Assembly (NCBI GenBank): GCA_026003195.1
Contig: BPGU01000005.1
Span: forward strand, 129,851-193,850
DNA from: Armatimonadota bacterium
GTDB lineage: Bacteria > Armatimonadota > HRBIN16
DNA length: 64,000 nucleotides
Reading direction: 5' to 3'
A program made the position numbers and the translations under genes. The notes below the pieces were generated by a model that searched no databases, had not been told where the DNA came from, and worked only from the letters and a program-made list of their open reading frames with translations. Below are positions 4,401 to 59,416 of the stretch, in pieces; within the stretch, counting starts at the first letter, position 1; each line of letters begins with the position of its first letter.

Positions 4401-7400
4401 TTCACCGACGCCACGTGGAACGGTCTGCTCTCCAGCGGGAGGTTCGGCATCTATCTGCTCCGGGGCGGTCAGCGTAACTCGCCAGTCTCCGGTCCGGGCA
4501 GATGGGACGCGGCTACCATCATGAGTCTCTATTACCTGATGGAGCTGGTTACCGATGCGGTGTATAACGTGGTAGGCAAGGACGAACAGGTCCGTGATGA
4601 CTTTGCCGAGTATCTCTGTTTTGACCAGCCCGGTCTCAAGGCGAAGGTGAAGTCGGATCCGACCGCCGTGTTGAACGCGCCGGCGGGCTCCTCCGTTGCC
4701 GAGCGGTTACTGGTGCTCGGAGCCTGTCTGTACAACGCCGGACCGCAGGCTCTGCGTTCGGTGTTGAGGCAACTCGCTTCCAATGTGCGTTCGGGCAAAC
4801 GGGGCGCATCGTTGTTTGCGGTATCCCGAACGGACAGAGACCATGGCAGACTGGTCTATGAGCGGTATCAGAAGTGGTTGTCCAGATTGCCTTCAGGCGG
4901 TTCCGCAGGGATGACGTCGCAGCATCAGGAGGTATCGCATGTGAGCGGAGTCAATCCGACTTACTCGCCTGCGGTGCTTCGCCGGCCGGAGTATCAGCTA
5001 CCGGAGAACGCCGGTGATCCGTTCTACGATGTGCATAACGTCAAGAACTTCCCGCTCCTGCAGCTCACCGGCTGGTCGGATATGGCAAGGCATCAGCCTC
5101 ACGGCAGACTGCTCCAGTGTTTCCCCACCTACTGCATGTTGCTGGTTCAGGGCGGGCGCTGGGTACGCTGGACACGGTTCTGGGACCACTTCTACGGGCT
5201 GTTCTCCGTGATGTCCATCGATGTGCACAAGTCCAGAGAGAGTCCGCAGCATACGGCGGAGATCATCCTGGCGAACTCGTATCGGCAGCTCAGTAACCTG
5301 ACGGTCACGCAGGCTTACGCTCAGGCGGCTATAGCGGGCATGAGACCGTTCCAGTATGTGCAGGGCGAGGAGTTGATGCGCGGTAGCACCGGCAGCGACG
5401 CCACCGATTTCCTGGTGCAGCTGGTGAAGTCTGTGCAGAACTCGCTATTCCCGTTGCTGGGCGATTATGAGCGTCACGTCTGGAACCAGGAGATGAAGGC
5501 GCTCTTCCTGCATCCTGGCGAGCGTGTGCATCTGAGGATCGGTTATGGAGCCGATGCGGCGGCGTTACCGGTGGTCTTTAACGGTACCATCGCCAGCGTG
5601 GATATACAGGGCAGCGTCATCCGCATGCTGGCGCTCGGTGATGGGCGCGAGTTCCTGCGCGAGATCGCCACAGAAGGTCAGCCCTACAAGAACTCCAACC
5701 TGCTTGGGCAGACGGTAGAGGTGCGCAATATCCTGATAGATATGCTCGTATCCAGACGGGCGGACTCCATACCGGTTATCGGACCGGTGGTGTACACCTT
5801 CTCGGCGGGCGGTCTGCTCAACGATTCCCGGTTCGGTATAGAGAGCTTCGGTCGCATCGAGGCGCTTGCAGGTTCCACCGTCTTGCAGGACGTGAAGTCC
5901 GGTAACGTGAGTGTGCGCACTTTCAAGATACTGGGCATGGCCAGCTTCCAGGCGGGTGAGGGCGAGGTCGGTGTCAACATCTACAACAGTCAGCGTGATT
6001 CCAGCAATATCAGCATCGGCATGTTGCCTTTGCTGGACACGCTCACGCTGGGACTGTCCCAGATGGCACGCAACGGAGACTATATCGCCATCGAGTTGAA
6101 GCAGGGCACGGTATGGGACGTGTTCCGCAACTGCCAGCTGGCGGTGCTGGATGCTCTGATGAGCGTGGAGCCGTTCGGTTTGAGGAGCACTCTGTTCTTT
6201 GGACGCGGTAACCAGGCGTTGCATTACGATTACTACGATGCCGCCCAGATTGAGGCGCTCGGCTTGCCCGATGTGGCTTCGCATATCGCGCTCGGTGGAT
6301 ACTGGCGCATCATGAAGTTCAAGCAGTATCGGCAGTATCATCTGGCGGTATCCGAATGGAACCTCATTGCGAACGAGTTGACCGCATCGTCCGAGCGCAT
6401 GTGGAACGAGGTACAGAGTTTTGACGCGGAGGGCGTGCCCGGCAACAAGTTCACATTCGACCCGGCGATAGTGCCTGAGGAGCGCAAGCCTCTCTCTTTC
6501 CACTCCGCGTTGTCCACCACGCTCATGTCGCAGCTGTCGCTCGGTGCCGAGAGCAACTGGATATCCGTGCTCGCCAGGATAGGTATCGTGCGTAACCTGA
6601 TAGGGGAACGCGCCGGGCTGGCGATGCCTATTCGTGCGGTGAACAACGTGTCCGCCAACCTGGTGCGCGAGGGCGTGTCGCTCATGTATGACGGTTCCAT
6701 CGTGCTGGCAGGCGCGGCGGAGATTAAACCTCACGATTTCCTGTTCATCAGCGACCAGCTCCGCGCCATGCAGGGCACTGTGGTGGTGCGTGAGGTAGAG
6801 CATCACTTCTCCACGCAGCACGGTTATACCACGCTGATAGTGCCCGATGCGTGCGTGCTCGGTAACGGCGACCTGGACACCATCAACATCGTGCAGGCTT
6901 CCAAACAGGCGTGGAACCTCATACAGTTCTACCGGATGCGATCGGAGTTGTTGCTGATATATCGTTGCTATCTGATGGGCGTTCTGTACGGCGCCTCCAT
7001 GGCGCTTGGCAGGTTGCGGTTCATCACGCGCAGGATACCGGGCGCGGACAGGATGATGGACCGGTTCCTGGCGCTCATGTCGTCCGGTATGCAGCGGTTG
7101 AAGCCCACCAGGCAAGAGGTATGGAAGCTGGTGGTGAATGCGTTCAACTCGTCCCGCTACCTTGCCAATGACTTCTTTGGCACGCTGTTCCACGGCGCGT
7201 GGACGGTGAGAAGTATGGCGGACACACTGCGCGGTCTGGCGCTGGACAGTCTCGGTGCGGTTCGGTCACTGCTCAGTGGGCGCGGTATAGAGGCGTTCGG
7301 TAACGTGGCGTCCGCCGTGCAGAGACTCGCCGGACTGGGTGCAGCCAGACCGATATTTGCACTGCGTAACGTCGCTTCGGCTGTGGTCAAAGCGGTGGGC

Positions 7401-8324: not shown

Positions 8325-8350
8325 TGCCAATTAGTTTAAGGAGTGATGTT

Positions 8351-8740
8351 ATGCTATCCGGTTCCATCAAGAGGCAGATAGGTCAGTCCGTTCAGAACAC
8401 CTGCACTTCTGTGGCGGCGGAGGTGTTCGGCGATCCCATTCGCATGCCGGACGGCACCTATCAGGTGGTGGTGGAGATGATAGGTGGCGGTTACGGCGGT
8501 CGTTCCACGCTGGTGGCGGTGTACACGGACCAGCAGACGGGGGTGACCGGTGCGAGTTTAAAGAGCGGCGATCTGGTGCTCGTCTCGTTTGACGAGAAGG
8601 GGAGCGCCTCGCCCCGTATCACCAGCGTCATCTCCAGATACACCGCTTTCAGCAACCAGAGCATCCGCAGTCGCCCTGCGGTGTCCGATGCAACTCGTGC
8701 GGACACCACATCGATGATGGTGGTAGGTGGTGCGCCATGA
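8351..8740 (+). CDS. hypothetical protein (129 aa)
   Basis: ATG at 8351 with AAGGAG 8 nt upstream. The ORF-track alternative start is at 8324. Confidence 0.5.
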   Translation: MLSGSIKRQIGQSVQNTCTSVAAEVFGDPIRMPDGTYQVVVEMIGGGYGGRSTLVAVYTDQQTGVTGASLKSGDLVLVSFDEKGSASPRITSVISRYTAFSNQSIRSRPAVSDATRADTTSMMVVGGAP

Positions 8741-8782
8741 GTGCCGGAGGTGGTGCGCCATGAGTGCCGGAGGTGTTATGCC

Positions 8783-9352
8783 ATGACGCTGGCGGAGAGT
8801 CTGGATGCACTGTTCGAGTTGATGGAGCGAAGCGAGCGGGATGTGGCGGTAGCGCAGGGCGACGAGCTGGTGGTAGCGCATCCGCAGGGCAGGCACGGAC
8901 TGTTTGTGCGGGACGGCGGGTTCGTGGATATAGCGTCCGGCACTCAGGTAGTCGGACTGAACAGCATGGGACTGGTTGCGGACCTGAACGTGCTGGACTG
9001 CAGGGCGTCGGTGGTGTCGATCAACACGCAGTCGCTGTGGATAAACACGTTGCCTGGCGGGTTAATAGTGGACGGATACGCCGCCGACGCAGGTATCCTG
9101 CATGGCGAGTTGATAGGTCGCTATCTGCGGGACGCGAAGGTGGTTATCACCAGAGGTTCGCTGAAGCAGATCCAGAAGGCGCGTGGTGATAAGGCTTCCA
9201 GTCCCGTAGAGTCCCCGGTCTGTCAGGAATGTCCCAATCTGGTATCGGTGCCGTTGTCCAGCCTCATCGAGCCGTTCGGCTGGAGCAGACCGCTGGATGC
9301 GAAGTTGCTCAGCAGGTTCAATCAGGTATTGAACAGGGTGAGAGGGCTATGA
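8783..9352 (+). CDS. hypothetical protein (189 aa)
   Basis: ATG 8783 (MTLAESLDALF) preceded by GGAGGTG. Upstream there is a 24-bp tandem duplication. Confidence 0.5.
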   Translation: MTLAESLDALFELMERSERDVAVAQGDELVVAHPQGRHGLFVRDGGFVDIASGTQVVGLNSMGLVADLNVLDCRASVVSINTQSLWINTLPGGLIVDGYAADAGILHGELIGRYLRDAKVVITRGSLKQIQKARGDKASSPVESPVCQECPNLVSVPLSSLIEPFGWSRPLDAKLLSRFNQVLNRVRGL

Positions 9353-9798
9353 GAGACCTTACTATCCAGACGGCGCGTGTGGACCGGTTTGTAGATATCC
9401 AGCTGGAGCCGAACGGTGATCTCAAGCTGTTACCGAACGGCGACCTTGCGCTGGATGACGATATAGACGCGGTGGAGCAGGCTATCCGCTGGCGGCTGTT
9501 GACGGAGCTGGGCAGCTGGTATCTGGAGCCGGAGTGCGGTAGCGAGATACTCTCCTTTGCAGGGCGACCGAACTCGCCGGAGACGGCGCAGCTGGTGGAG
9601 TCGGAGATATACAGGGCGCTCTCTCATGACGGCTTCATCATGCCCGATGAGATAGAGATACATACCGCGCCTCTGGACGCCAGTCGGATGACGGTGATCC
9701 TGATGGTGCGGGAGGCGCTCGGTGTGGAACGCGCAGCCTTCCAGTTTGAACTGAACCTCATATCTGGAGAGCTTACGGGATGGCAGAGAATCGCTTGA
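9351..9798 (+). CDS. baseplate protein, GpW/gp25-like (149 aa)
   Basis: Size, position after the TMP-like gene, and a pattern (LKLLPNGDLALDDD...AIRWRLLTELGSWYLEPECGSEI) resembling the GPW_gp25 family. Confidence 0.45.
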
Positions 9799-11573
9799 GA
9801 ATTGCCGGTCTGGCGTCGGACGATACCGGTTGTGGTCACTACCGGTTGATCCATCCACTCAAGGCGCTTTCCGATGCCGGTCACGATACGGTATGGAGCA
9901 CGGACCCGTTACAGTTCATGAATCTGGCAGAGCAGGCGGATGTGGTCATCCTGCAGAGATGTACCTATCCGCCGATAGTGGAGCAAATAGGGCGATGGAA
10001 GCGTTCTAAGCTGGTGATCTACGAGCTGGACGACCTACTGCACTGTATACCTCCGGATAATCCCTCCTTCCGTTACTACAAGCCAGGCGGTGACCTGTTG
10101 AAACATGCTACCAGAGCGATTGTGGAATCGGACGGGATGATAGTCTCCTCTTACGAGCTCTGGAAGTATTATCAGCGCTACAACAGGAACATCATCATCA
10201 TCCCGAACTTCATTGACTTCAAGCTACGGGATTGGCAGAGCGAGTATCCCCGTGCCCGGCATCGGATAGTGGTAGGCTGGTCCGGCGGAAGTCAGCATCA
10301 GCCGGACGCGCAGTTGATAGCCTCCGTGTTGAGGACGGCGCTGGAGTATCCGCAGGTGGATATCGGTCTGTACTGTCATCCCCATTTTGCAGGCTACTTG
10401 ATGCAGTATCTGCCCGATGTGCCGCCGGAGCGTGTATTGCTTTTGCCGGTACGTCCATTCCGCGATTATCCCTATCAGCTCGGAGCGTTCGATATCGCCA
10501 TCGCGCCGGTGGCGAACAACGAATTCAACCGCGCCAGGTGTCTGCATTCCGATACGCCGGTGTGGACGCCTGCCGGTATGAGCACTATCGGCGCGTTGAA
10601 GCCCGGCGATTGGGTATGGAACGGTGAGCGTTATGTGCATGTGCTGGCGGTTCATCATGATGGCGGCTCGCTGGGCATGGAGCTGGAGCTGGATTGTGGA
10701 TTGAGCGTTCAGCTCACACCGGAACACAGGGTACTTACATCTATTGGATGGCTCAACGCAGGTAAGCTCCGACGCGGGGACAGGATACAGCTGGCTGCGC
10801 CAAACTATTCCGGCTACGGCGAGAAGCGGTATTCGCCGCAGCAGGCAGCCGAGATCGCTATGGATAACCGCCTCCAGTTCAGACCACATGAGCTGTTCTC
10901 AGGATGGAGTAACGGGGATATGGTCGCCTGGGCGCAAGCTTTATGGAGCAGGTATGGTGGTCAGGACAGGCGTGGCAGGGTCTATCTCACCGTGAGGCGC
11001 GAGGTGGCTCCGTTCTTTGCTCTGGCTTTACTGCTCTCAGGCAGAGGTTGCAGGGCGAACTGGTATACGCGCTCCGTGCGGTTCACTCTGCTGGACGAGG
11101 GCGCTCCGGAGTATTCCAGCATCAGAGGTATCCGCGCCAGGTGGATTGATGCAGTGGATATTCAGGTTGAGGGTGAGTTGTTCTGCGCGAACGGCGTGGT
11201 ATCTCATAACTCCAGTTTGAAGCCGCTGGAGTATATGGCGCGTGGTGTGCCCTGTATCGCTTCCGATGTCGCCGAGTACCGTCTGTTGTACAGACAGGGT
11301 GCGCCCTTCCTGCTTGCAAACACCATGCAGGACTGGCGCAGATGTCTGGACGCTCTGATCACGCAGAGGGTTTCCCCGACGGAATGGGTACAGACGCATT
11401 ATGACCTGCACCAGAACGTGTATCGCTATGAGCAGGCGATACAACAGTTCCTGCAGTGGAAGCGTGAAGGGTGTGTCGGTAAGGGTCAGGTGTTTGTGCT
11501 GGAACGGAAGCATCCCTGTCCCTGCGGCAGTGGCGAGCGTTACGGACGTTGCTGCTATCCGGTATTTGGATAA
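9780..11573 (+). CDS. glycosyltransferase family 1 (GT-B)-like protein interrupted by an intein, with a C-terminal SEC-C metal-binding motif
   Basis: The extein junction NNEFNRAR|SLKPLEYMARGVPCIASDVAEY reconstitutes the GT4-type nucleotide-sugar binding (EX7E-like) motif. The C-terminal HPCPCGSGERYGRCC is a SEC-C motif. Confidence 0.7.
   Translation: MAENRLRIAGLASDDTGCGHYRLIHPLKALSDAGHDTVWSTDPLQFMNLAEQADVVILQRCTYPPIVEQIGRWKRSKLVIYELDDLLHCIPPDNPSFRYYKPGGDLLKHATRAIVESDGMIVSSYELWKYYQRYNRNIIIIPNFIDFKLRDWQSEYPRARHRIVVGWSGGSQHQPDAQLIASVLRTALEYPQVDIGLYCHPHFAGYLMQYLPDVPPERVLLLPVRPFRDYPYQLGAFDIAIAPVANNEFNRARCLHSDTPVWTPAGMSTIGALKPGDWVWNGERYVHVLAVHHDGGSLGMELELDCGLSVQLTPEHRVLTSIGWLNAGKLRRGDRIQLAAPNYSGYGEKRYSPQQAAEIAMDNRLQFRPHELFSGWSNGDMVAWAQALWSRYGGQDRRGRVYLTVRREVAPFFALALLLSGRGCRANWYTRSVRFTLLDEGAPEYSSIRGIRARWIDAVDIQVEGELFCANGVVSHNSSLKPLEYMARGVPCIASDVAEYRLLYRQGAPFLLANTMQDWRRCLDALITQRVSPTEWVQTHYDLHQNVYRYEQAIQQFLQWKREGCVGKGQVFVLERKHPCPCGSGERYGRCCYPVFG
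10539..11210 (+). other. intein (224 aa) within the GT-like gene
   Basis: N-terminal block A CLHSDTPVWTPAGMSTIGAL, block B TPEHRVLT, C-terminal VDIQVEGELFCANGVVSHN followed by +1 Ser. Coordinates derived from codon positions. Confidence 0.8.
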
Positions 11574-41285: not shown

Positions 41286-44087
41286 CTATTTGACCGGACA
41301 GGCGCCGGTAGAACAGTCCTCCTCATACGATGCGTTCTGTACACGAGTGGCGCTTAGCTCATACTGCTCTCTGCTGATGCGCTCCAGCGGCGACTGCGGA
41401 CGACTGGACTCGGGGAACATGGTCACTCCCTTCAATCTTGGCAAATAGAGCAACAGTAACTCGCGGATCCGGTCTGCACGCTGCTCCTCTGCACTGATGT
41501 TGATGGTGATGCTCACTGCGTTGTCCGCATACTCGCGCTGCACCAGCTCCTGCACGCGCAGGAAGTCCGATACGTCCAGATCAAACTGGCTCTCCAGCAA
41601 CGAGAGCACCTGCTCGTAATCGCCCAGATGACTCACCAGCCTGTCCACAGTGATATCCCGACACACATACGATACTACCGTCGTGTTGGGCTCGTTGATG
41701 GCAGACTCCACATGGTGGTAATCGCCACGCTCCAGCACGCGCTGTAGCTCCGTGTCGGAGTTGCTATACCGTACACGACGGATGTAGAACGGGGAATAGA
41801 GGGGCTGGATGCCCGATGTCACACCGGGGATGTTGTTGATGGTGCCGGTAGGAGCTACCGTGGTGCACTTGATAGGCTCCGCAATCCGCATCTGCCTGGC
41901 ATAACGACGCGCCTCCTCGCGCACCACCTCCCGGAACTTCCTGAGCTGACGCGCTACCCACGGTGAGGAACTGGCTTCTGAATACCGGATACCGTGCTTG
42001 ACCAGCCACTCGTGGAAGCCCAGGAAACCGACACCTATTCTCCTGTTCCGCTGCACGTTCTGCCTGGTCAACTCGTCCGAGAGCTCCGCAAAGGTAGCTC
42101 TCAACAGGAACCGGGACATCAACCGGAAGCATTCTACAGGGTCCTCCGCAAACGCCAGGTTCACATGACCGAGACAACATACGTCAAAACTGCGCATGTC
42201 AGGATAGCGCATCATCGCGATCTCGCCGCAGTTGTGACTGACAAAGCCGTTGGAGACGTAGCAGTGTGCACCTTCTACCGTGCAATCGTATACCTCCATC
42301 TCGCCCAGCGGACTCACCTGTTGCACCTGCTCCAGCCATTCGCCACGATGCTTCTTGCTCGTACGATTCAACCGGCGCAGACGCATCGCCTGACGAGCCT
42401 GCCGCATATACTGCTTGTCTATCCTCAAAGACCACGTGTCCAGCGACGGTCGGTATACCAGCACAGACTTGATGCCCAGCATGTTCAGATGCGCTTTCCA
42501 CCTGTACGGGTCCACTTTGTCCGGTAACCAGATGAACTCCGTGCCATCACTGGATTCCGAACCGAGTAGACTCAACATGTCCTGCAAGCTGTCGAACTCG
42601 TCGTCCGCGACGATCGCGCCCTGTATGACCACGCTGTCGCCAGGCTTCAAATCGGATATGGGAACCCATTGCTTTGTGCCGTCACGCTCCACCAGTAACC
42701 GATGGTCAGCAGTGGCTTCCAGACGCGAACCCTGCACGGTCAGTACCTCATACACGGGCTTCTTGCCGGTGCTGAAGAACCCGGAACTGTGGAAGAACTC
42801 ACCGTTATATACCGCCGTGAACTCGTCCCTCAGCTCCTTCACCGGCACCATGCCACGATCGGTCAAGACGAGCGTGTTCTCCGTCACGCACGGATTGGTG
42901 GAATAGAAGGTGGCGCCCGGCGCCTCGTCCACCTCGCACTGCGAGGCGTTGATGAATCCGGGCTCGCCGTTGGTCAACATGCCTTCTATCACCTCGTCCA
43001 GCACACGGTTCGCCCAGCCGTGTAGCGGATGCTTCCTGTTGCGTACCGCACGGAAGAACTCGTCGTCCACCACAACGGAGATGTTCGTCGTCCAGTGTAA
43101 CCGGAAGTCGCGCTTGCAGTGGATGAACTCAAAGATATCCTTGTCCGTCCACCACTTCATGGACATCCTGGCGGAACGCCTGGTGCCTCCGGCTATAACC
43201 GCCTGCGCGATGTAGTGGTCTATCTCCATATAGTCCAGACTGCTTAGCGGCGTGCCTGTGCGACTGTTCAACAGTCTGTTGATGCGATACAGCATCACCA
43301 TGAGCGCACCAGGTCCGGACGCCTTGCCCCCGAACCCCTTCAACTCCGCACCGTAAGGGCGAACGTTGCCTACATCTACCACAAAGTCCACCTCTCCACG
43401 ACCGGACAGGTGTAACTGCAACAGCTTCTCCAGTGCCTCAGCCCAGCCTTCACGACTGTCGTCCACGCGCAGGTAGTTGCCGTTCTCCGCACCGTCGTAA
43501 TCTACCGGATAGCGCGTGCTCAGCATGTCCCTCAAAGTGCGGAAAGGCTCGTCCGACTCCGCACCTACAGGTCGGTCTATGTCCTGATGGTTCGGGGAAC
43601 ACAGGAAATGAAGGTTCACAACGGTGTCCGGAACCCAGTAACCGTTCACCTGGTTCGGATTGGAATGGATGAACCGGTCGGAATAGTTTGCACCTACTCC
43701 ACCACCTTCCATCAACCGCAGGAAGGTGTAGGTGAAGTGTTTGTGGAACTCGTCGGTGAAATCCGCTACGAAGCAGTTGTTCACGAACTGCCGATACTTG
43801 TGGATGCCGGTAGCCCAGAGATGCCGACCGGCAGGGATGATCTGCATCGTCACCATCAGATGGAACAGCTTCTGGGGCTCCTCCGGCTCTATGAACCTGG
43901 AATCCACCAGACTGCAGTTGCCGTTGACTACTCTGGCACAGATGTCGTACCAGTCCTCTATACCGCCGTCTTGCTTGGCACGTGCATAGGTGCGACGGAT
44001 GACCGTCTCACCAAGGGGACCGAGATTCAATGGGATGCTCTGACGAGCCTGCTGAACCATCTCTGCAGTGATGTACTTCAACGCCAT
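41286..44087 (-). CDS. nrdJ: ribonucleotide reductase catalytic subunit (probably class II, NrdJ-like) containing an intein
   Basis: RNR core motifs reconstituted across the intein (STNPC|GEIAMMRY). C-terminal Cys pair. No NrdB-like gene nearby, which is the only basis for the class II guess. Confidence 0.85.
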   Translation of the reverse strand: MALKYITAEMVQQARQSIPLNLGPLGETVIRRTYARAKQDGGIEDWYDICARVVNGNCSLVDSRFIEPEEPQKLFHLMVTMQIIPAGRHLWATGIHKYRQFVNNCFVADFTDEFHKHFTYTFLRLMEGGGVGANYSDRFIHSNPNQVNGYWVPDTVVNLHFLCSPNHQDIDRPVGAESDEPFRTLRDMLSTRYPVDYDGAENGNYLRVDDSREGWAEALEKLLQLHLSGRGEVDFVVDVGNVRPYGAELKGFGGKASGPGALMVMLYRINRLLNSRTGTPLSSLDYMEIDHYIAQAVIAGGTRRSARMSMKWWTDKDIFEFIHCKRDFRLHWTTNISVVVDDEFFRAVRNRKHPLHGWANRVLDEVIEGMLTNGEPGFINASQCEVDEAPGATFYSTNPCVTENTLVLTDRGMVPVKELRDEFTAVYNGEFFHSSGFFSTGKKPVYEVLTVQGSRLEATADHRLLVERDGTKQWVPISDLKPGDSVVIQGAIVADDEFDSLQDMLSLLGSESSDGTEFIWLPDKVDPYRWKAHLNMLGIKSVLVYRPSLDTWSLRIDKQYMRQARQAMRLRRLNRTSKKHRGEWLEQVQQVSPLGEMEVYDCTVEGAHCYVSNGFVSHNCGEIAMMRYPDMRSFDVCCLGHVNLAFAEDPVECFRLMSRFLLRATFAELSDELTRQNVQRNRRIGVGFLGFHEWLVKHGIRYSEASSSPWVARQLRKFREVVREEARRYARQMRIAEPIKCTTVAPTGTINNIPGVTSGIQPLYSPFYIRRVRYSNSDTELQRVLERGDYHHVESAINEPNTTVVSYVCRDITVDRLVSHLGDYEQVLSLLESQFDLDVSDFLRVQELVQREYADNAVSITINISAEEQRADRIRELLLLYLPRLKGVTMFPESSRPQSPLERISREQYELSATRVQNASYEEDCSTGACPVK
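42231..42890 (-). other. intein (220 aa) inserted at the RNR active-site NPC|GEI motif
   Basis: Begins CVTENTLVLTDRGMVPV and ends HCYVSNGFVSHN followed by +1 Cys. Coordinates derived from codon positions. Confidence 0.85.
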
Positions 44088-44796
44088 ACCTCCGTTCCAT
44101 CATGGATGTAATGTAGTCTGTCAGATTGTCCAGATAGGGGATAAGATCAACGGGGCAGGAATCTCTGAGTCGTCTCAACGATACGAAGGTGTGCTCCAGA
44201 CAGCTGCTGCTCTCGCAATCGTCCATGACAGATAACAACTGCTGCCATAGCGATTTGCCCAGCAAGTCCATGATGTCCAGAACCGTCTCATCGTACTCGT
44301 TATCATTGTAGCCAAACGCGCTTTCCATGATGCTGGAATCCAGAAGCACCGGACTCCTCAACATGTAAGCGTTGTGCAGATGCTCCGGCAGATCTTCCAC
44401 GTCGTACCCGTTGCGCTGATACGCGCGGATGCGCTTGCTGATGTCGCGTGGAACAGGCAACTCATCCAGTACCTTGTTATACACGTAGCGCTTGACGTAG
44501 GAGACAAGATAGACGGCAAAGTCGGAGCCCCTGGTGCAATCGTACCGGTCTAGCGCTTCCAGCGCCGCCAGCCTCGCCCACTGCATCATGTCCTCACGAG
44601 GCACGCCCAGCGAATGGAGCGCCCTGTGCTGCCAGATGACCAGATAGTTCAGCAACTCCTCAACATTGCTCACATAACTCTCTAATAACCGAACCCGATG
44701 GAGCTCGTCATAACACCTGTGGTAACGCTCCGCCAGATCCTGCAAACATGGAGATATCCTGGTACGGAGGGTCTTGAATGCACTGCTCATTCCCAC
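44008..44796 (-). CDS. sigma-70 region-2-like protein (262 aa), possible third phage sigma factor
   Basis: WARLAALEALDRYDCTRGSDFAVYLVSYVKRYVYNKV resembles sigma region 2.1-2.4. Confidence 0.45.
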   Translation of the reverse strand: MGMSSAFKTLRTRISPCLQDLAERYHRCYDELHRVRLLESYVSNVEELLNYLVIWQHRALHSLGVPREDMMQWARLAALEALDRYDCTRGSDFAVYLVSYVKRYVYNKVLDELPVPRDISKRIRAYQRNGYDVEDLPEHLHNAYMLRSPVLLDSSIMESAFGYNDNEYDETVLDIMDLLGKSLWQQLLSVMDDCESSSCLEHTFVSLRRLRDSCPVDLIPYLDNLTDYITSMMERRYGVEVHHCRDGSAGSSEHPIESRSPW

Positions 44797-44922: not shown

Positions 44923-46365
44923 CTATTGCCGGAACATTCCCGGAAGTTCTGTGCTCACATCCCACCCCACGGCGGCGCACAGGGCGCGTCGCTCCCTGAG
45001 GTAACCATCCAGCGTCGGGAAGCTGCGACTCATCTCCTTCACTATCGCCAGAACGTCCCGGTAACCGTCCACCGTGACGCTCTCCCACGGCGAACGGTCA
45101 CGGAACCTGTTACGCATCACCAGCAGCCGATAAACCAGCTCGTTGAGGGTGCGGGGCGGATACACCTGTACCAGAAGCTGGTTGAGCAGCGAAGCCAGCG
45201 TCCAGCGGTGTGTGTATCTCCGTTCTACTCTACCGCCTTCCCCGTCATCCACCTCGAACTCCCGACCGGTGATGAACATACCGCTGATTAACATGCTCGC
45301 CAGCCTGTCCAGCGCATACAGCACCTGCATCGGGCTCTCTAACCTCAACCGGACCGGATAGCCAGCCTGTTCGAACTGGTCGTAGCTCTGGTATTGCTCA
45401 AAATCTATCTGGACGCCCGTCATCAGGTCCAGAGTGTCCGCACTGGGGACGGGAACCACAAGGTCTATCTCACGACCGTCGCAGGGGATGTCCATCGGAA
45501 CCGTGTCCGACACCTGCACCGCCTGCCCGTTGACGAACAGACGACCATCTTGCACCTCATACTCCAGACAAGGGAACATCTCAGCGGGCTCCAGAGGCAA
45601 CGGACGAGCCAGCTGCACGGCAACCCCATCTCCGCTCTGCTGCCAGTACGGGTGCAGGTAGACCCTTAAACCGTTATCGCCCTGCGGGTGGAACACGGAG
45701 GAATAGCTGAACCAGTTGTGCAGAAACGGATACTCCGGGACAAGATACAACCTGTCCTGCTCGGCGTATGGATTGAGCACATCTGCCCGCGCGGACACGT
45801 ATCCCAGCGACATCACGGCGATATGCTTGCTGGACTGGATGAAATCCATCATGTGCAGGTGCGGGTTGCGACGCTCTATCCGCTCCACCAGCAGCAGGTT
45901 GCGGAAGAGTTTTGCTATCGTCTCGCCGTTGTACCTGTCCAGACTGCCTATTCGGGATTCAATGTATTTCAGCATCCCTGAAACGTCAGAGATGCCCAGT
46001 CGGTTCGCTTCCCATAAGGCGTATTCATCACGTCGGATCTCGTACTCCAGTCTGTCCTCGATTTGTTGACGGAGATGCTCCTTCAACACCTGCGAGGCGT
46101 CGGGGAAGGTTGCCCAAGGCTTTACAGCCTGGAAGAGTTGCTGTTGTTCCAGCAGGAACAGTTTGAGGTGCGCAGGACACACGATATCGGCGTGGACGGG
46201 ATGCTCGTAGAGTGCGCCCATAACATCCTCTGAGAACACCGATACCTTCACGTTCATACCGCGCTGCAGCACCTCTATCAAGTTCTCATAGGGCAGTCCC
46301 TCCTCTACACGCATGACCTTTACACGGCGATTACCGACGGATATAGCACAACGTACGTTCATCAT
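44923..46365 (-). CDS. hypothetical protein (480 aa)
   Basis: Long ORF with SD AGGAGG. Confidence 0.6.
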   Translation of the reverse strand: MMNVRCAISVGNRRVKVMRVEEGLPYENLIEVLQRGMNVKVSVFSEDVMGALYEHPVHADIVCPAHLKLFLLEQQQLFQAVKPWATFPDASQVLKEHLRQQIEDRLEYEIRRDEYALWEANRLGISDVSGMLKYIESRIGSLDRYNGETIAKLFRNLLLVERIERRNPHLHMMDFIQSSKHIAVMSLGYVSARADVLNPYAEQDRLYLVPEYPFLHNWFSYSSVFHPQGDNGLRVYLHPYWQQSGDGVAVQLARPLPLEPAEMFPCLEYEVQDGRLFVNGQAVQVSDTVPMDIPCDGREIDLVVPVPSADTLDLMTGVQIDFEQYQSYDQFEQAGYPVRLRLESPMQVLYALDRLASMLISGMFITGREFEVDDGEGGRVERRYTHRWTLASLLNQLLVQVYPPRTLNELVYRLLVMRNRFRDRSPWESVTVDGYRDVLAIVKEMSRSFPTLDGYLRERRALCAAVGWDVSTELPGMFRQ

Positions 46366-46399: not shown

Positions 46400-48022
46400 A
46401 TGGCTTACATTTACACGGAATCGGATTATCCTCCGCTATATCAATCCATGCGCAGACTGGTGGAGTCGGATGTCAGGCTCAGCGCATGGAACTACCTGTT
46501 CCCGGCATCTCAGGCTGATGTGCTGGCGCATGCCCGTACCAGTCCGCAGATGGTGACGGCTCTTGCCTATGCGCCCAGTCATCCCAATATCCTGAACCAT
46601 CCGTTAACTTATACCACCGTCGTGGAGCGTGGTAGACGCAGGAACGCCTCGTCTCAGACCGCCCGGCTGTTCTCCGATATACTGGACACCCTGTACAGAG
46701 AGATGGGCGAGCGTCCCATATACAGTCTGTACGCCAGCCCCACCATCCCGTCACCGGCGTTTGCGCATCAGGACGACCCTGCGTTCCGACCGGGATTGAG
46801 ACCAGGCTCTGTAGAGAGCATCATCCGGCAGATGACGCCTGGGCATGTGTTCCTTGCCAGAGTGCCGTCTGACGAGTTGACGAATCCTGCACCGGCTGAA
46901 TCTGCAGAGGACCTGTCCAGAGTGCTCGGGGAATACGACGCACGTGAAGGCTTCCGGCGACTGGCGCTCCTGTATGAACGGTCGCCCGGTAAGAGCTCGC
47001 TGCTGTCCACTCTCTCCAGACAAACCGGCGCCGATGCTGATCAGATCGCCAGAGCGCTGGAGGCGAGCTCTGCTATCGGCACTGCACGCGATGCCAGGTC
47101 CATGATCCGCACGGTCGCCCATGAGTTCGCACATGCCAACATCCAGCCGGTGCCGCCCATTGCCACCTCGGCGCTGTTCAGGATGTTACGGGGCAAGACC
47201 AGTCCGACAGATGTTGCGGTTGCGGAGCTGATGCAGTCCCAGTATCTGGACGAAGCGCTATCTGATACATTCGCCGCAGCGGTCTCACTGGATCCTGAAG
47301 GCATCGCTCATTCCCGGTACGCGTTCGCCGCCGCATCACAGATATATGCAGCGGCACGCAGGAACAGGCAGGAGCTGAAGGGCTGGAAGTATGGAGACCC
47401 GTTCAAGCTGGTGGTCATGGATCCCAAACTGGTGGAGGATGTGGATTCCCCGCTTGGTAGACTGCTGAGGGACGAGTTGCGCAGGTATCCGCTGGACAAA
47501 ATCGCGGATGTGGACCAGATAGAGGACGAGAAGGGCGAGTTGAACATCGAGGCGTTGACCGGCGTTATCTCCCGAATCAGCGGTATCAACAGCACCGTCG
47601 CGCAGGAACTGTATCGCAAGCTGAGCGGGGGCACGCTGGACCTCAGTCGCTACGGTGGCGACGAGCGCCAGCTACGTCAGGTGATAGAGACCTGGGGCAG
47701 CAGACTCTGGAGCACCGCCTACATGATAGGCAAAGCCTCGCCGGAGCTGATAGGCAAGGAGATAGAGGTCACTCCGGAAGGCGTGTTCATGGACGGTGAG
47801 AAGCTGGACCTCGCTAAGACAGGTATCCCCGACCTGGACTATCTGTCCTTGACCGGCAGGGGCGAGATGCATCCGGAACAGCTGGAACGCGCCCATAACG
47901 CGCTGGAGATGTATCGTCGTGCCAAACGGGCGCTCCTGAGAGGCAAACGACTCGTTCTGCAGGCTGGTATGGCAGCCACCGAGATCGTGCAGTCGTGGAG
48001 GCGCGAGTTCGGCGCCATCTGA
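46400..48022 (+). CDS. HExxH zinc-metallopeptidase-like protein, tandem paralogue 1 (540 aa)
   Basis: HEFAH + downstream Glu. Shares GWKYGDP, IGKxxPELIGKEIxVTPEG and HPEQLER blocks with the next two genes. Confidence 0.65.
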   Translation: MAYIYTESDYPPLYQSMRRLVESDVRLSAWNYLFPASQADVLAHARTSPQMVTALAYAPSHPNILNHPLTYTTVVERGRRRNASSQTARLFSDILDTLYREMGERPIYSLYASPTIPSPAFAHQDDPAFRPGLRPGSVESIIRQMTPGHVFLARVPSDELTNPAPAESAEDLSRVLGEYDAREGFRRLALLYERSPGKSSLLSTLSRQTGADADQIARALEASSAIGTARDARSMIRTVAHEFAHANIQPVPPIATSALFRMLRGKTSPTDVAVAELMQSQYLDEALSDTFAAAVSLDPEGIAHSRYAFAAASQIYAAARRNRQELKGWKYGDPFKLVVMDPKLVEDVDSPLGRLLRDELRRYPLDKIADVDQIEDEKGELNIEALTGVISRISGINSTVAQELYRKLSGGTLDLSRYGGDERQLRQVIETWGSRLWSTAYMIGKASPELIGKEIEVTPEGVFMDGEKLDLAKTGIPDLDYLSLTGRGEMHPEQLERAHNALEMYRRAKRALLRGKRLVLQAGMAATEIVQSWRREFGAI

Positions 48023-48064
48023 TTGTTGCGCCATCTGATTGTTGCGCCATCTGATTGTCCACCG
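48020..48064 (+). repeat. 16-bp direct repeat x ~2.7 (cgccatctgattgttg) overlapping the stop of paralogue 1
   Basis: Read directly from the sequence. Confidence 0.7.
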
Positions 48065-48253
48065 TGTGTACTGGTAAGCACGGTGGATACGGATGTACAT
48101 ATTCTCCGAACAGGACCTCAACCGATCCTGGCAGGCGTTTAACGAGCTCTTCCAGCAAGACGTTGTACCCCGCATCAAGGCGAGCATCATGGGGCACTAC
48201 ATGCAGCATAAGACGCCCTATGATGCGTTCCGATACTCGCCCGCCGTCTGGTA

Positions 48254-49777
48254 GTGTCTGCCCAGTCCGCCGAGGAGCTCCGCTCCGGCATGCTCATGGG
48301 CGTAGAACGCGCCGTCATGGAAGCGGTAGGGCCTGATAACAAGCGCAGGAACCTCGCCGTATACCTGCGCGGTCAACCTGTCACCGGTCAGGCACAGGAT
48401 ATCGCCAGAGTCGGAGGCGGCGAACTCTACCATTCCATCTACAGCGAGCTTGCCAGAGCCGTAGGTGGCGCACAGTTCAACCTGTATGCCAGCAAGGAAG
48501 GACACTCTGCATGGGGACAGGAAGCCATCACGGACTATCCGGATATCAACCTGTCCGCAAGGATGCTCGCAGGTGACCGCACCGAGCTGATGCGCGAGGT
48601 AGCACGTCAGACCGCGCCGGTATATCAGATAGCGTACAAATACAACGCCCCCAACGGTGGGGATCCCGCTTCCGTACCGAGCAACCTCGTGGCTCCCATA
48701 CATGCCGGAATGGATCCAGATGAAGCCAAACGGTTGGTAAGGGAATCTTACAGATACGCTACCGGTCAGGAAGATGATCTTCCCATCTCGCTGGCAGCCC
48801 ACGAGTTCGCACACACCACGCTTCAGCCCAGCAGGATGGTTCCGCACAGCGTGGTTCAGGAATACGTGCAGGGCAAGAGATCTCTGGCGGATATCCTCAC
48901 ACGCGGCGTGCTGGAATCGCAGTTCCTCAACGAGGCTCGCGCGGACATGTTCTCCATGGCGATCAGTCTCAACCCGCAGGCGATGGTGCGCGGGCGCTAC
49001 GCGATGGGCGCATACGGTAAAGCGCTGTCCAGTCGCAGCGGCGAGATGCAGGGCTGGAAGTTCGGTGACCCCCTCAACGTGCGCGTGATTGATCCCCAGA
49101 TGATTGAATCGGAGACGTCACCGCTGGCGCAACTGGTCAACCGATACGCCACAGCGGTCTCCGAACGGATACTCCACAATACCGCCAGAACGGGTGACCT
49201 GATGGCGGATGCCGCCGCTTCTGCAATGGACCAGCAAACGGTTGAGAAGCTAAGAGCGACAATGGACCCGTTAAACATGGTGAGGAATGCGAAGCTGGAC
49301 ATCTATGCCTCCGCATACTTCTCCAGAACGATAAAGAGACTCAGCAGTGATATCATGCGCCCCATCATTGAGGACTACCGTTCCGGAATGCTCGGTAACC
49401 TGCACCCGGATGTGGAGGAGCTGATCAAGTATCAGGGCACGAGACTTTGGGCTCTCGGATACATGGTGGGCAAGAGCAGACCGGACCTGATCGGCGAGCA
49501 GTTGAGCGTAACCCCAGACTCTGTTCGTGTCGCATCCACAGGCGAGGAGTTGAACATCGCCGAGCTTTTACCTTCACTCAACATCTCATCCATGTACGGT
49601 CCGCAGGTGATGCATCCCGTGCAGATGGAGCGGGGCTTCAAGGCGCTGGAGATATACGACAGGGCGAGAGAGGCTATCAGGCAAGGTGTTCGGTTGAACC
49701 TGTCGCCCGGCACACCAGCCGCCGATGTCGTGTCCGCATGGCGCGACCGGTTCTGGAAGGTGATGAACGATGTCTAA
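48254..49777 (+). CDS. HExxH zinc-metallopeptidase-like protein, tandem paralogue 2 (507 aa)
   Basis: HEFAH. GWKFGDP. VGKSRPDLIGEQLSVTPDS. Confidence 0.65.
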   Translation: MSAQSAEELRSGMLMGVERAVMEAVGPDNKRRNLAVYLRGQPVTGQAQDIARVGGGELYHSIYSELARAVGGAQFNLYASKEGHSAWGQEAITDYPDINLSARMLAGDRTELMREVARQTAPVYQIAYKYNAPNGGDPASVPSNLVAPIHAGMDPDEAKRLVRESYRYATGQEDDLPISLAAHEFAHTTLQPSRMVPHSVVQEYVQGKRSLADILTRGVLESQFLNEARADMFSMAISLNPQAMVRGRYAMGAYGKALSSRSGEMQGWKFGDPLNVRVIDPQMIESETSPLAQLVNRYATAVSERILHNTARTGDLMADAAASAMDQQTVEKLRATMDPLNMVRNAKLDIYASAYFSRTIKRLSSDIMRPIIEDYRSGMLGNLHPDVEELIKYQGTRLWALGYMVGKSRPDLIGEQLSVTPDSVRVASTGEELNIAELLPSLNISSMYGPQVMHPVQMERGFKALEIYDRAREAIRQGVRLNLSPGTPAADVVSAWRDRFWKVMNDV

Positions 49778-51425
49778 GTTCATCCAGAACCTGCTCAAAC
49801 GCGCCGACCGGTTCCAGAGCCCTGCACAGGAGGTAATAGCCGACAGTCCCGCTCAGGAGATTCTTGAGCAGGATGTTCTTGCTACTGAGCAGGAGGTTCT
49901 TGCCGATAGCCCGGCACAGCAGGCGCTGGGCACGAGCTATGTACGGAGCTTACTGGCCGGTAACGCATTCCCCATCTACACGCAGGAGCATCTCAGGGAC
50001 TTTGAACAGCGATTCCTGTCCGCATGGAGCGATATCCAGAGCCCGGTGCGCATTCAGGAAGCGCTGGACAGGCTTCCGATGGAGTTGCTGGCTGCCACCA
50101 ACACCATCTGGGAGCCGGACGCATCCATGAGCACCGCCTATCGGGAAGGCGAGTGGAAGGTGAAGCGACCGCCCATAGGATTAAGATTGTATCAGGAAGC
50201 TTCAACCGAAGTGGACCGGATACTGGGCTATGAGAATAAGGTCAATCTGTACAGCTCGTTCCTGTCCGGTCCCTCTATGCGCGGACTGGACCCGCTTCAA
50301 CCGGACAGGACGGTTGAACCGTCAGGGCTGTTGAAGGAGACGATGCCCGCTACCAGACTGGTGTATCTGGATATGATGAACTCACCGTTTATAAGGGAGT
50401 ATATGGATGAGTACGAACGGGTCAGTCCGGAGCTCAAGCGGGTGATACAGGGCGTGCAGGACGTGGAGGTGGTGAACCGGGTGACGCCGTTCACATACCT
50501 GCACGAGTACACGCACGGCGTGATGTTCCCGCTATCCACGATAACCTACAGCAACCTGCAACGCCACCTGAGCGGCGAGTTAGGGATGACGGATATCGTC
50601 ACCAGATCGTATATGAACTACGCCATGATTCAGGAGGCGGTCGCCGATGCCATCGGAGCCGCACTGTCCGGCGACCTGGAAGGCGCATTGACCATGCGAT
50701 ATAGCGCCGAGATGGCAGTGCACGCCGGTGACGATGTGAAGCCCAGATACGGCGACCCTATCCGTCTGGAGGTAATAGACCCGGCACTGATAGAGGATAC
50801 CGAGAACAGTCCGCTCTGGCAGATGGTAAGGCAAGCCGCAAGCGATATCGAGCAGAGACGACCGAACAAGTTTATCGATGAACCGAACGTCATGAGGTAT
50901 TCCCTGGAACGCCGAGACCTGAGGGCTTTCACAACCGCCATGCAGAGTCTGGAACATATCACCAGCATGGTATACGATAAACTGATAAGCGCCGCGGAAT
51001 CCGGTAGTCTGGATAGACAACTCCGTGAGACCATCATGGGACAGGCTTCCAGAATCTGGATCTATCCCTACTTCATCGGTAAAGCCAGACCGGACCTCAT
51101 CGGTAAGGAGATAAACATCCTGCCCGAATCGATTGAGGTGGCAGAGACCGGTGAGAAGCTGAACCTTGCGGAGATACTGCCGGATATCGCACCGTTAGGA
51201 TTAATAGACGAATCCGTTGTGCATCCGGAACACCTGCGTCGTTCCTTCAAGCTGATCGAGTTATACGACCGTGCCAGGGAAAGACTGAGGGCGGAACACG
51301 CCATGCAGCAGGCTTCGGAAGCGGAGGTAGTGCACCACAGGAACTACGAGACCGCACCGCCTCCGGATACAGGAGAAGCGGTGATAGAGCGCTGGCGGGA
51401 ATGGATCAGGAGCATAGCACCTTGA
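49770..51425 (+). CDS. HExxH zinc-metallopeptidase-like protein, tandem paralogue 3 (551 aa)
   Basis: HEYTH. PRYGDP. IGKARPDLIGKEINILPES. Confidence 0.65.
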   Translation: MSKFIQNLLKRADRFQSPAQEVIADSPAQEILEQDVLATEQEVLADSPAQQALGTSYVRSLLAGNAFPIYTQEHLRDFEQRFLSAWSDIQSPVRIQEALDRLPMELLAATNTIWEPDASMSTAYREGEWKVKRPPIGLRLYQEASTEVDRILGYENKVNLYSSFLSGPSMRGLDPLQPDRTVEPSGLLKETMPATRLVYLDMMNSPFIREYMDEYERVSPELKRVIQGVQDVEVVNRVTPFTYLHEYTHGVMFPLSTITYSNLQRHLSGELGMTDIVTRSYMNYAMIQEAVADAIGAALSGDLEGALTMRYSAEMAVHAGDDVKPRYGDPIRLEVIDPALIEDTENSPLWQMVRQAASDIEQRRPNKFIDEPNVMRYSLERRDLRAFTTAMQSLEHITSMVYDKLISAAESGSLDRQLRETIMGQASRIWIYPYFIGKARPDLIGKEINILPESIEVAETGEKLNLAEILPDIAPLGLIDESVVHPEHLRRSFKLIELYDRARERLRAEHAMQQASEAEVVHHRNYETAPPPDTGEAVIERWREWIRSIAP

Positions 51426-51778: not shown

Positions 51779-52020
51779 ATTTCTATCCTACTCAGGTATG
51801 TACCGAACTCAGCACGATGCCAGAGTGTATGCATACGGTATCATCAGTTTCTATCCTACTCAGGTATGTACCGAACAGCCTATGGAGGCTGCACAGCTCG
51901 CCAGACAGTTCGCATACAGATCGTTTGCGAACCGTGCGCTCTGCGCCGTGTTGATCGCTATCGCCATATACAATATCACTCCAGTGCACAGTTTCTATCC
52001 CACTTAGGTATGTGCCCAAC
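51779..52020 (-). CRISPR. mini-array: 3 variant repeats (51779-51808, 51847-51876, 51991-52020) with a 38-nt and a 114-nt spacer
   Basis: Repeats atttctatcctactcaggtatgtaccgaac, gtttctatcctactcaggtatgtaccgaac and gtttctatcccacttaggtatgtgcccaac. The last one overlaps the final 5 codons of the RNA ligase gene. Confidence 0.6.
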
Positions 52021-57969: not shown

Positions 57970-59416
57970 CGTTTCTATCGTTTCTATTCTAGCTTCCATC
58001 CTACTCACTTCTATCCTACTAAGGTATGTACCCAACTGGCTTAGGTATGTACCGAACTCAGCTCGTAGTCCTGAACCTCAAAGGTCACACCTTGAGTTTC
58101 TATCCTACTTATTTCTATCCTACTTAGGTATGTACCTGACCATTGCTGTATCTGGCGATGGCTGTCGGGGACTGGATTCGTTTCTATCCTACTTAGGTAT
58201 GTACCTGACTGATCAATCTGTAGACAACAGTGACTTCAACTTCACTGGTTTCTATCCTACTTAGGTATGTACCTGACGTGAGCACTCATGCCTGTTTCTA
58301 CCTTAACCTGGAGCTGTTTCTATCCTACTTAGGTATGTAACTGACTTGAAATCGCAATGTCACGATGATAACGATGCCTCCAGGTTTCTATCCTACTTAG
58401 GTATGTACCTGACCGCATTGGGCTGGTTAAGAACAGTAGCACGTTCTCCGTTTCTATCCTACTTAGGTATGTACCTGACTACCCGAACGTGCCTGCATGG
58501 TTGAGAGTGCCAGCGTTTCTATCCTACTTAGGTATGTACCTGACTGGCAAGGGTGCTGTTCGTTGGTGCTTCCCCCAACGACGTTTCTATCCTACTTAGG
58601 TATGTACCTGACACGATGAAGTAGACTTCGTCCCCTGCCCGCTCTGCAAGTTTCTATCCTACTTAGGTATGTACCTGACAACATCAGCGTGCGCCCAGTG
58701 CGCCGCGAGTTCGTGCGTTTCTATCCTACTTAGGTATGTACCTGACCCTTCATGATGACAAACAACTAACGAAACCAAAAGGGTTTCTATCCTACTTAGG
58801 TATGTACCTGACCGCGCCGGAAGAAGAGACGATAGTGTTTCGTGATGCAGTTTCTATCCTACTTAGGTATGTACCTGACACCTCCGAAGCCAGACTACTT
58901 CCGTGAGGTATCGGCGTTTCTATCCTACTTAGGTATGTACCTGACTGGCACGACGCTGACCAGGGTGAAGGGACAGTCGTTCGTTTCTATCCTACTTAGG
59001 TATGTACCTGACCTTTGCTTCACCCGTTAGTACGTCAACAATCCTGTACCGCGTTTCTATCCTACTTAGGTATGTACCTGACATAGCACGCGTCCTCAAG
59101 ACCACACCGGAATGGCTCGCGTTTCTATCCTACTTAGGTATGTACCTGACGAGTGTTTACGCTTCCTGTATGACCGCTTCCCGAATGGTTTCTATCCTAC
59201 TTAGGTATGTACCTGACCCGTACGGGAAAGAATACATACCTCTCTACGAAGATTGTTTCTATCCTACTTAGGTATGTACCTGACTGGTGTTCTCTGCCGA
59301 ACGCGCCATGATATAGCCGTGTTTCTATCCTACTTAGGTATGTACCTGACCACTCCTTTGTCAGACTTCACGTTTTCCGCGAATAGGTTTCTATCCTACT
59401 TAGGTATGTACCTGAC
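57970..59416 (-). CRISPR. CRISPR array: 20 full 30-nt repeats (58110-59416) plus a degenerate trailer (57970-58109), 19 spacers of 35-40 nt
   Basis: Consensus on plus strand GTTTCTATCCTACTTAGGTATGTACCTGAC. Transcribed sense GTCAGGTACATACCTAAGTAGGATAGAAAC (AUAGAAAC 5' tag). Degenerate repeats lie at the cas5-proximal (trailer) end. Confidence 0.9.

Follow-up and report, generated by a model that had tools for sequence, protein, structure and literature searches.

What do three consecutive and evidently related genes on a tailed phage encode, and why are there three of them? The question is raised by g1, g2 and g3, which occupy positions 46,400 to 51,425 of a 64,000-nucleotide stretch of DNA (contig BPGU01000005.1 of assembly GCA_026003195.1, deposited as an Armatimonadota bacterium). 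We refer to this whole stretch as the window. It is the DNA of a large tailed phage from hot springs, with genes for a baseplate wedge, virion proteins and a primase. A preliminary description, made from the letters alone, had taken the three genes to be a tandem triplication of a putative gluzincin-like metalloprotease. Our analysis suggests that they are probably anciently diverged paralogues of a new and very rare family, that the core of each protein carries the site of a gluzincin-type zinc metallopeptidase, and that the proteins are soluble, cytoplasmic and made outside the virion module. The genes are open reading frame (ORF) calls, with motifs located by translation (window positions):

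46400..48022, + strand: g1, a 540-residue HExxH paralogue, with HEFAH at 47120-47134 and EALSD at 47252-47266
48254..49777, + strand: main ORF of g2, 507 residues with the entire catalytic core, HEFAH at 48800-48814 and EARAD at 48932-48946
49770..51425, + strand: g3, a 551-residue HExxH paralogue, with HEYTH at 50502-50516 and EAVAD at 50634-50648

The three proteins can be aligned end to end with pairwise identities of 29-33%. The pairwise BLASTP expectation values (E) of 1e-37 to 1e-51 are far past chance, so the paralogy is real and the first observation of three consecutive paralogous HExxH genes stands. Each protein has a single HE(F/Y)(A/T)H motif, and E-A-x-(S/A)-D begins 44 residues past its first His. 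The blocks IGKxxP(E/D)LIGK and HP..(L/M)(E/R)R are common to all three. The motifs were largely as first listed; the exception is GW(K/Y)(Y/F)GDP, which is present as GWK(Y/F)GDP in g1 and g2 but is reduced to RYGDP in g3. A correction is needed for g2, whose 507-residue ORF is an incomplete gene (561 residues in four near-identical contigs). The start of g3 overlaps the stop of g2 by 8 nucleotides. The N-terminal ~200 residues are strongly divergent among the paralogues, whereas the catalytic and C-terminal halves are conserved.

The alignment of 19 family members has a mean column identity of 17%. Only M1, H241, E242, H245, E285, D289 and P477 (numbering of g1) are invariant, and five of these seven columns make up H-E-x-x-H and E-x-x-x-D. 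All 20 copies from related loci have exactly one HExxH and ExxxD, with the Glu 41-51 residues past the first His; this distance is 44 residues (40 from the second His) in g1, g2, g3 and most relatives. The conservation of HExxH in homologues, on which the preliminary description had staked its reading, is thus complete: His, Glu, His and the downstream Glu and Asp are unchanged in 19/19 members and 20/20 locus copies.

A profile of the motif region (90 positions) was compared with 177,635 distinct PDB sequences. Eleven sequences matched at E <= 10, every one of them a zinc metallopeptidase. M4 is represented by thermolysin, neutral protease and aureolysin and M3 by thimet oligopeptidase; the others are Wss1 and CapP. 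Thermolysin was matched at both VVAHELTHA and NEAISDIFGTLV. As a control, a profile of the C-terminal domain retrieved unrelated proteins only, such as armadillo repeats and TNFAIP8. This domain of ~200 residues (RxW...Y.iGKarPdLiGKe...GE.iDl..lPd...W) is conserved in the family and has no known relative. Alignment of the core with thermolysin by hhalign placed HExxH, E166 and D170 opposite their counterparts with one 20-residue insertion (probability 64.6%, pairwise E 6e-5). Additionally, one of the 19 members, P0014, has a sub-threshold match to Peptidase_M78 (19.4 bits against a cut-off of 22) that spans both helices, and the same member alone matches CapP (E 7e-5), again across both helices. 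Taken together, the invariance of the motif and the fact that the PDB motif profile retrieves nothing but zincins support the reading as a gluzincin-like metalloprotease; at the level of motif and profile, the active site has a gluzincin signature.

AlphaFold2 models were made of full-length g1 (predicted local distance difference test score 71.7, predicted template modelling score 0.78) and, from 17 sequences, of the g2 core (84.2 and 0.78, respectively). HExxH is helical in both models (232-247 in g1, 147-160 in the g2 core), and E285 and D289 lie on a second helix (269-295 in g1, 182-209 in the g2 core). The g2 core model runs from a strand (4-9) through a long helix (17-40) and two further strands (46-51 and 95-100) to the HExxH helix and the Glu helix. 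The zincin core has been described as a three-stranded sheet with an N-terminal helix, followed by the HExxH helix and then the Glu helix (PMC5512222). As the model follows this order, strand-helix-strand-strand-helix-helix, the predicted arrangement is compatible with a zincin core. At the least, the fold is predicted to be heavily elaborated, by helical insertions and by the C-terminal domain of ~200 residues that has no relative.

A scan of the sequences found no signal peptide, transmembrane segment or hydrophobic N-terminal segment in g1, g2 or g3. There are no cysteines in any of the three proteins and the hydrophobicity maxima are well under transmembrane values. With no hydrophobic segment and no Cys, the proteins should be soluble and cytoplasmic.

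The family is undescribed and very rare. An exhaustive hidden Markov model search of 1.84 billion representative proteins gave 17 proteins at E <= 1e-3, and a word-indexed protein search gave only three close relatives of g1. There was no match by blastn and tblastn in 50,697 phage records, no family locus in a scan of IMG/VR viral contigs and no relative in the 185,579 GTDB representative genomes (one per species). A locus search of JGI metagenomes gave three loci, which belong to the P0006 clade. PDB sequence searches with paralogue, whole-family and core profiles gave nothing relevant.

The preliminary description had also raised the matter of presence and copy number in related phages. Four close loci (L003-L006) carry the same triplet with 96-100% amino-acid identity (99% for the g1 orthologues), and g1 orthologues of ~50% identity are present in L001, L002 and L012. 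The copy numbers in the more distant loci are as follows:

L012: three copies (534, 562 and 525 residues), the first 50% identical to g1, the second 41% to g2 and the third ~30% to everything
L010/L011: two copies, a tandem pair 60% identical, a more recent duplicate
L008/L009: two copies, which flank a sigma-like gene despite rearrangement
L007 (GCA_900175145.1): two adjacent long forms of 1013 and 1165 residues, at 2509-9135
L001: one copy, a g1-like gene, followed by a HicA/HicB toxin-antitoxin pair (4490-4977) in place of g2 and g3

Arrays of two or three paralogues are therefore the norm in the family and are present in all relatives whose contig is long enough to show them. The overlap of stop and start seen between g2 and g3 is 8 nucleotides in the window and 4 in L012. 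Each of the L007 long forms has one HExxH module followed by a region without HExxH that repeats the GKxxPxLxGK segment, and an HD-domain gene lies upstream. We considered whether these second halves are full duplicated modules, but only GKxxPxLxGK is weakly recognisable (probability 30%), and an argument from them for a fused dimer is weak.

Because L012 contains positional counterparts of g1 and g2 that are orthologous and 40-50% identical, the array predates that split. By this sequence comparison the triplication is old, older than the separation of phages whose orthologues are now 40-50% identical. Ratios of non-synonymous to synonymous substitution (dN/dS) were taken from orthologue pairs; the paralogues could not be used because their synonymous sites are saturated at ~30% amino-acid identity. 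Between the window and L004 the Nei-Gojobori values are 0.23 for g1, 0.26 for g2 and 0.37 for g3, against 0.31 for the RNA ligase gene, on small counts of 12-39 substitutions per gene. This indicates purifying selection and no sign of an arms race.

One neighbour recurs. In the window, L001, L003, L005, L008, L009 and L012, a family member has a Sigma70_r2 gene at a distance of one or two genes at most; in L010/L011 and L007 no such gene is adjacent. In the window this gene is:

44008..44796, - strand: sigma-70-like factor (Sigma70_r2; Pfam E 2.2e-6, above the curated cut-off)

These observations lead to the following proposal. Zinc would be held by the two His of HExxH, on one helix, and by the Glu of E-x-x-x-D, on a helix ~40 residues downstream. 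The Glu of HExxH would act as the general base and the Asp of ExxxD would buttress a His ligand, as in thermolysin. The proteins would most likely be endopeptidases that cleave host or phage proteins inside the infected cell. Conservation of the catalytic and C-terminal halves, set against the variable N-terminal 200 residues, suggests paralogue-specific substrate recognition, and the divergent N-terminal halves would then give each paralogue its own specificity. Alternatively, the paralogues could assemble as a hetero-oligomer, a possibility raised by the g2-g3 start/stop overlap and the multi-copy arrays. Since a sigma-like gene is so often the neighbour, targets connected with transcription are the guess that is easiest to test, by the logic of ImmA/IrrE and CapP. 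We think it rather probable that g1, g2 and g3 are active zinc metallohydrolases of the zincin type. What the analysis shows is the paralogy, the unvarying motifs, the rarity of the family, its conserved arrays and the purifying selection; zinc binding, peptidase activity and intracellular substrates are inferred.

Several results weigh against this interpretation. Taken singly, none of the PDB motif-profile matches is significant (E 0.3-4), and short motifs account for them. The Glu follows the second His by 40 residues, double the spacing in thermolysin. Scans of Pfam, PHROGs, NCBIfam and PADLOC with the three proteins and with all 19 members gave nothing at threshold. Foldseek gave no structural neighbour in the PDB (best E 0.31 for the full g1 model and 1.4 for the g2 core model) or in BFVD (best E 0.095), and the sole zincin among the matches was one M1 peptidase at E 5.8. 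The link to the sigma gene could be inherited synteny inside one viral lineage and not functional. The thermolysin-like fold that had been anticipated was not confirmed by these comparisons: neither AlphaFold model has a structural neighbour, and the predicted order of elements is compatible with a zincin core.

A more specific possibility is that the proteins are regulatory proteases of the ImmA/IrrE/CapP type, whose targets would be the sigma-like pro-protein, an anti-sigma factor, a host sigma factor or a repressor, and which would switch transcription in infection. The faint matches are all to protease families, the best being those of P0014 to M78 and CapP, in which both catalytic helices are covered, and CapP is among the PDB motif-profile matches. 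Consistent with this, the Sigma70_r2 gene is within one to two genes in at least three diverged clades and stands between two paralogues in L008/L009. However, the M78 match is under the Pfam cut-off and is confined to one of 19 members, and the Pfam scan of neighbours found no adjoining repressor of the helix-turn-helix (HTH)/XRE type. The proteins are also long (510-640 residues) in comparison with the profiles of Peptidase_M78 (123 positions) and CapP (242 positions). No sigma gene is adjacent in L010/L011 and L007, and the synteny elsewhere may simply be inherited. We regard this explanation as unlikely.

The paralogues might instead serve virion maturation or polyprotein processing, trimming structural or injected proteins during assembly. 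The phage is tailed and has very large structural ORFs (2351, 1687, 1334 and 1232 residues). Such a role has been proposed in group 1 jumbo phages, for a zincin-like peptidase that is conserved among them (PMC7824862), and the processing of polyvalent proteins by zincins has been proposed as well (PMC5512222). The position of the genes argues otherwise. The triplet lies ~8 kb past the structural block, amid the genes for ribonucleotide reductase, the sigma factor and RNA ligase and the cas genes, and the neighbours in other clades are DNA polymerase B, sigma and MoxR/VWA genes and not head or tail genes. There is also no fusion to a structural or effector domain. We consider a role in the virion unlikely.

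The preliminary description had favoured a diversifying function, with anti-defence or a toxin family among the ideas. In such an arms race the genes would be fast-diversifying anti-defence effectors or toxins, and tandem duplication would generate new specificities. The N-terminal 200 residues are indeed strongly divergent between paralogues, the two copies in L010 (60% identical) stem from a more recent duplication, the g1-like gene of L001 is followed by HicAB, and the multi-copy, lineage-restricted zincins of jumbo phages have been read as hitting different host proteins (PMC7824862). This is difficult to reconcile with the positional orthologues of g1 and g2 in L012, which put the array before a split at 40-50% identity, or with the dN/dS of 0.23-0.37 between close strains, which is similar to that of the RNA ligase gene (0.31). 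Both results speak against a diversifying function. The anti-defence and toxin ideas fare no better: there is no significant or meaningful PADLOC match, no secretion signal (neither signal peptide nor transmembrane segment) and no immunity gene or immunity-like partner, and the CRISPR neighbourhood is confined to one lineage. We regard this explanation as very unlikely.

A bolder version of the metallopeptidase interpretation is that a hetero-oligomeric zinc protease and the sigma-like factor form a host-takeover module, which would eliminate or process sigma factors of the host, anti-sigma factors or subunits of RNA polymerase. The multi-paralogue arrays, the g2-g3 overlap in two diverged clades, the long forms of L007 and the sigma adjacency in L008/L009 are hints only, and we give the module a very low probability. 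To our knowledge a proteolytic route to transcription takeover has not been described for phages. If such a module exists, a phage factor would capture transcription by proteolysis, using a fold with no close structural relative.

Finally, it is most improbable that HExxH/ExxxD is a metal site for some other hydrolytic or structural role in a fold unrelated to zincins, since, although neither model has a Foldseek neighbour, no curated family matches and some zincin-fold proteins act on non-peptide substrates, the match reaches the thermolysin-like flanks of both helices (aHEfaHa and l.EA.aDiFa.av), the predicted order of elements fits the zincin core, and HExxH keeps its catalytic Glu in every member aligned, a constancy that a structural role alone would not demand.

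In the window, g2 is split. The features at the g1-g2 junction are as follows:

48012..48058, + strand: tandem repeat (GCGCCATCTGATTGTT), perfect, 16 bp x 2.9, across the g1 stop codon (Tandem Repeats Finder)
48059..48086, + strand: inverted repeat CCACCGTG-N12-CACGGTGG in the g1-g2 spacer, invariant in the alignment with related contigs
48093..48254, + strand: detached N-terminus of g2 (MYIFSEQDLNRSWQAF...), 53 codons out of frame with the rest of g2 (translation and related contigs)

In the four near-identical contigs L003-L006, g2 is intact (561 residues), starts at the ATG equivalent to window position 48093 and begins 39 nucleotides past the g1 stop. DNA alignment with these contigs shows a 1-nucleotide deletion near 48245 in the window. 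The shifted frame of 53 codons ends in a TAG that overlaps the GTG at 48254. The detached N-terminal motif resembles the N-termini of other family members in the 19-member alignment, and the 507-residue ORF is 97% identical to residues 55-561 of L004 g2. The rest of g2 has no signs of decay (dN/dS 0.26 against L004), so the frameshift is either very recent or an assembly error. The 16-bp unit is present once in L003-L006 and the window has two extra copies (32 bp); this expansion may be a true strain variant or an assembly artefact. The inverted repeat in the spacer is possibly an RNA hairpin.

Among the structural ORFs of the window is one of 2351 residues (1269-8324, + strand) with a C-terminal VanY D-Ala-D-Ala carboxypeptidase domain. 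It probably encodes a tape-measure protein or one that is injected and degrades the cell wall. No family match was obtained for several other window ORFs of 1200-1700 residues. The structural block also encodes a protein of 597 residues (9780-11573, + strand) whose N-terminus matches a phage glycosyltransferase (phrog_7162, E 4e-28) and whose C-terminus carries a SEC-C zinc motif.

The triplet is ~8 kb past this block. To its left, on the - strand, there are an orphan gene, the sigma-70-like factor and a class II (B12-dependent) ribonucleotide reductase (41286-44087) that contains an intein (Intein_splicing, residues ~435-618). The orphan gene is:

44923..46365, - strand: orphan 480-residue gene, divergent from g1 with a 34-bp spacer, and beside g1-like genes in the closest clades only

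The 480-residue protein is 35% identical to the L001 neighbour, and a search gave a single near-identical homologue. We considered this gene as a degenerate paralogue or a conserved partner of the triplet and rejected both (hhalign probability 0.4%); no homologue was found beyond the close clades, and the neighbours in L007 and L008 are unrelated to it.

To the right of the triplet there are a small orphan gene (111 residues) and a mini-array of units that resemble the repeats of a CRISPR (clustered regularly interspaced short palindromic repeats) array. Then come genes for an RNA ligase and a nucleoside deoxyribosyltransferase, those for Cas3 and Cas5, and a CRISPR array of 20 repeats. The type I CRISPR-Cas system of the phage (55300-57955 and 59655-62404, - strand) comprises Cas3 (HD and helicase), Cas5d, a DevR/Cas7-like protein and a 546-residue gene, with the array in between; among the window ORFs scanned there was no Cas1, Cas2 or Cas4. 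Cas3 and Cas5 hardly differ from their L004 counterparts, whereas the synonymous divergence of the flanking genes is 1-6%. The placement of the triplet beside a CRISPR module, to which the preliminary description drew attention, holds in this phage lineage but not in other clades. A functional link between the triplet and CRISPR-Cas was considered and rejected, as the cas genes adjoin the triplet in the window lineage only.

Units resembling the CRISPR repeat (TTTCTATCCTACTNAGGTATGTACC) are present outside the main array (20 repeats, 58112-59412) at 51780-52016, 54151, 55267, 58008 and 59612. Three of them form the mini-array directly downstream of the triplet, and single units lie in gaps between - strand genes, one of them directly after the Cas3 stop. 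The solitary units could have a role in regulation, RNA processing or as decoys. The first spacer of the mini-array had no other match within the window. A scan of 46-60 kb against Rfam gave nothing, and a scan for sigma-70 promoters and terminators gave sites no more numerous than in shuffled sequence.

As to the origin of the phage, g3 is 98% identical to P0004/GIV22189.1 and to the g3 of L003-L006. A near-identical g3 is annotated in an Armatimonadota metagenome-assembled genome (KatS3mg023) on contigs of 28 and 202 kb, and the protein cluster of g3 is also found on a 219-kb contig of GCA_017880035.1. The Katase hot-spring study reported that many circular contigs binned into metagenome-assembled genomes are phage-like, so assignment to an Armatimonadota host is by binning only.

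The work adds a distinct family to the zincin metallopeptidases, with no relative in Pfam, PHROGs, NCBIfam or the PDB and no Foldseek neighbour. It is so far limited to a handful of metagenomic phage contigs, and the nearest relatives belong to a set of contigs that was binned with Armatimonadota from hot springs. Because orphan HExxH families are common in phages, the value of the finding is moderate. If the proteins are thermostable (there is no cysteine and the closest relatives are from a hot spring), they may suit biochemistry and could have unusual specificities. The stable arrays and the sigma-like neighbour also offer a testable handle on host reprogramming by little-known large thermophilic phages.

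In chemistry and motif, the known enzymes closest to the family are the thermolysin-type gluzincins (MEROPS clan MA(E), M4), which it resembles in having a predicted HExxH helix and a predicted downstream helix of the form N/x-E-A-x-[SA]-D-x-F (l.EA.aDiFa.av against NEAISDIFGTLV in thermolysin). In the model, a strand/helix/strand/strand unit stands before the catalytic helices. The differences are considerable. The distance from the second His to the Glu is ~40 residues in the family and 20 in thermolysin, and there is no significant sequence or Foldseek match (no Pfam match at E <= 1, and PDB matches to thermolysin at E 0.3-0.5 with the motif profile only, the full-length and core profiles giving none). 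M4 enzymes are secreted pre-pro-enzymes, whereas the family has no signal peptide or propeptide and is predicted to be cytoplasmic. Further differences are the sizeable helical insertions and the C-terminal domain, which is conserved and unrelated.

Anthrax lethal factor and Pro-Pro endopeptidase (M34) have an HEFGHA-type motif, a Glu ~39-45 residues past the second His and an N-E-A-x-x-x-A-E-A-F-like helix. This spacing is nearer to that of the family than thermolysin's is. The Pfam and PDB searches of the family gave no match to M34/ATLF.

ImmA/IrrE (Peptidase_M78) and CapP, the protease of the cyclic oligonucleotide-based antiphage signalling system (CBASS), share with the family an HExxH and a downstream Glu, a cytoplasmic location and encoding by mobile elements. 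They also provide the only near-threshold matches across both helices (one member, P0014), and the family lies beside a transcription factor gene. In contrast, the M78 match is under the Pfam cut-off in one of 19 members, and the family proteins are several times longer, with extra domains and in arrays of two or three paralogues. No HTH_3/XRE repressor of the ImmR/DdrO/CapH type was matched among the window neighbours (Pfam scan) or in related loci (precomputed Pfam annotations).

In biology the closest parallels are M78/CapP and the SprT-like and ArdC-like zincins of jumbo phages. The latter are also HExxH enzymes of large phages, in one to three copies and with restricted phyletic distribution (Iyer et al., 2021, PMC7824862); cleavage of different host proteins has been proposed for them. 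The metallopeptidase domains of polyvalent proteins are likewise of zincin type and have been proposed to cleave host or phage proteins (Iyer et al., 2017, PMC5512222). The family differs in having no SprT, ArdC or other Pfam/PHROG match (only Wss1, at E 0.8, in the motif search), and its members are stand-alone proteins with no further recognised domains, unlike polyvalent proteins. Finally, the copy number of the family is stable at three between diverged relatives, whereas that of the jumbo-phage zincins varies between close ones.

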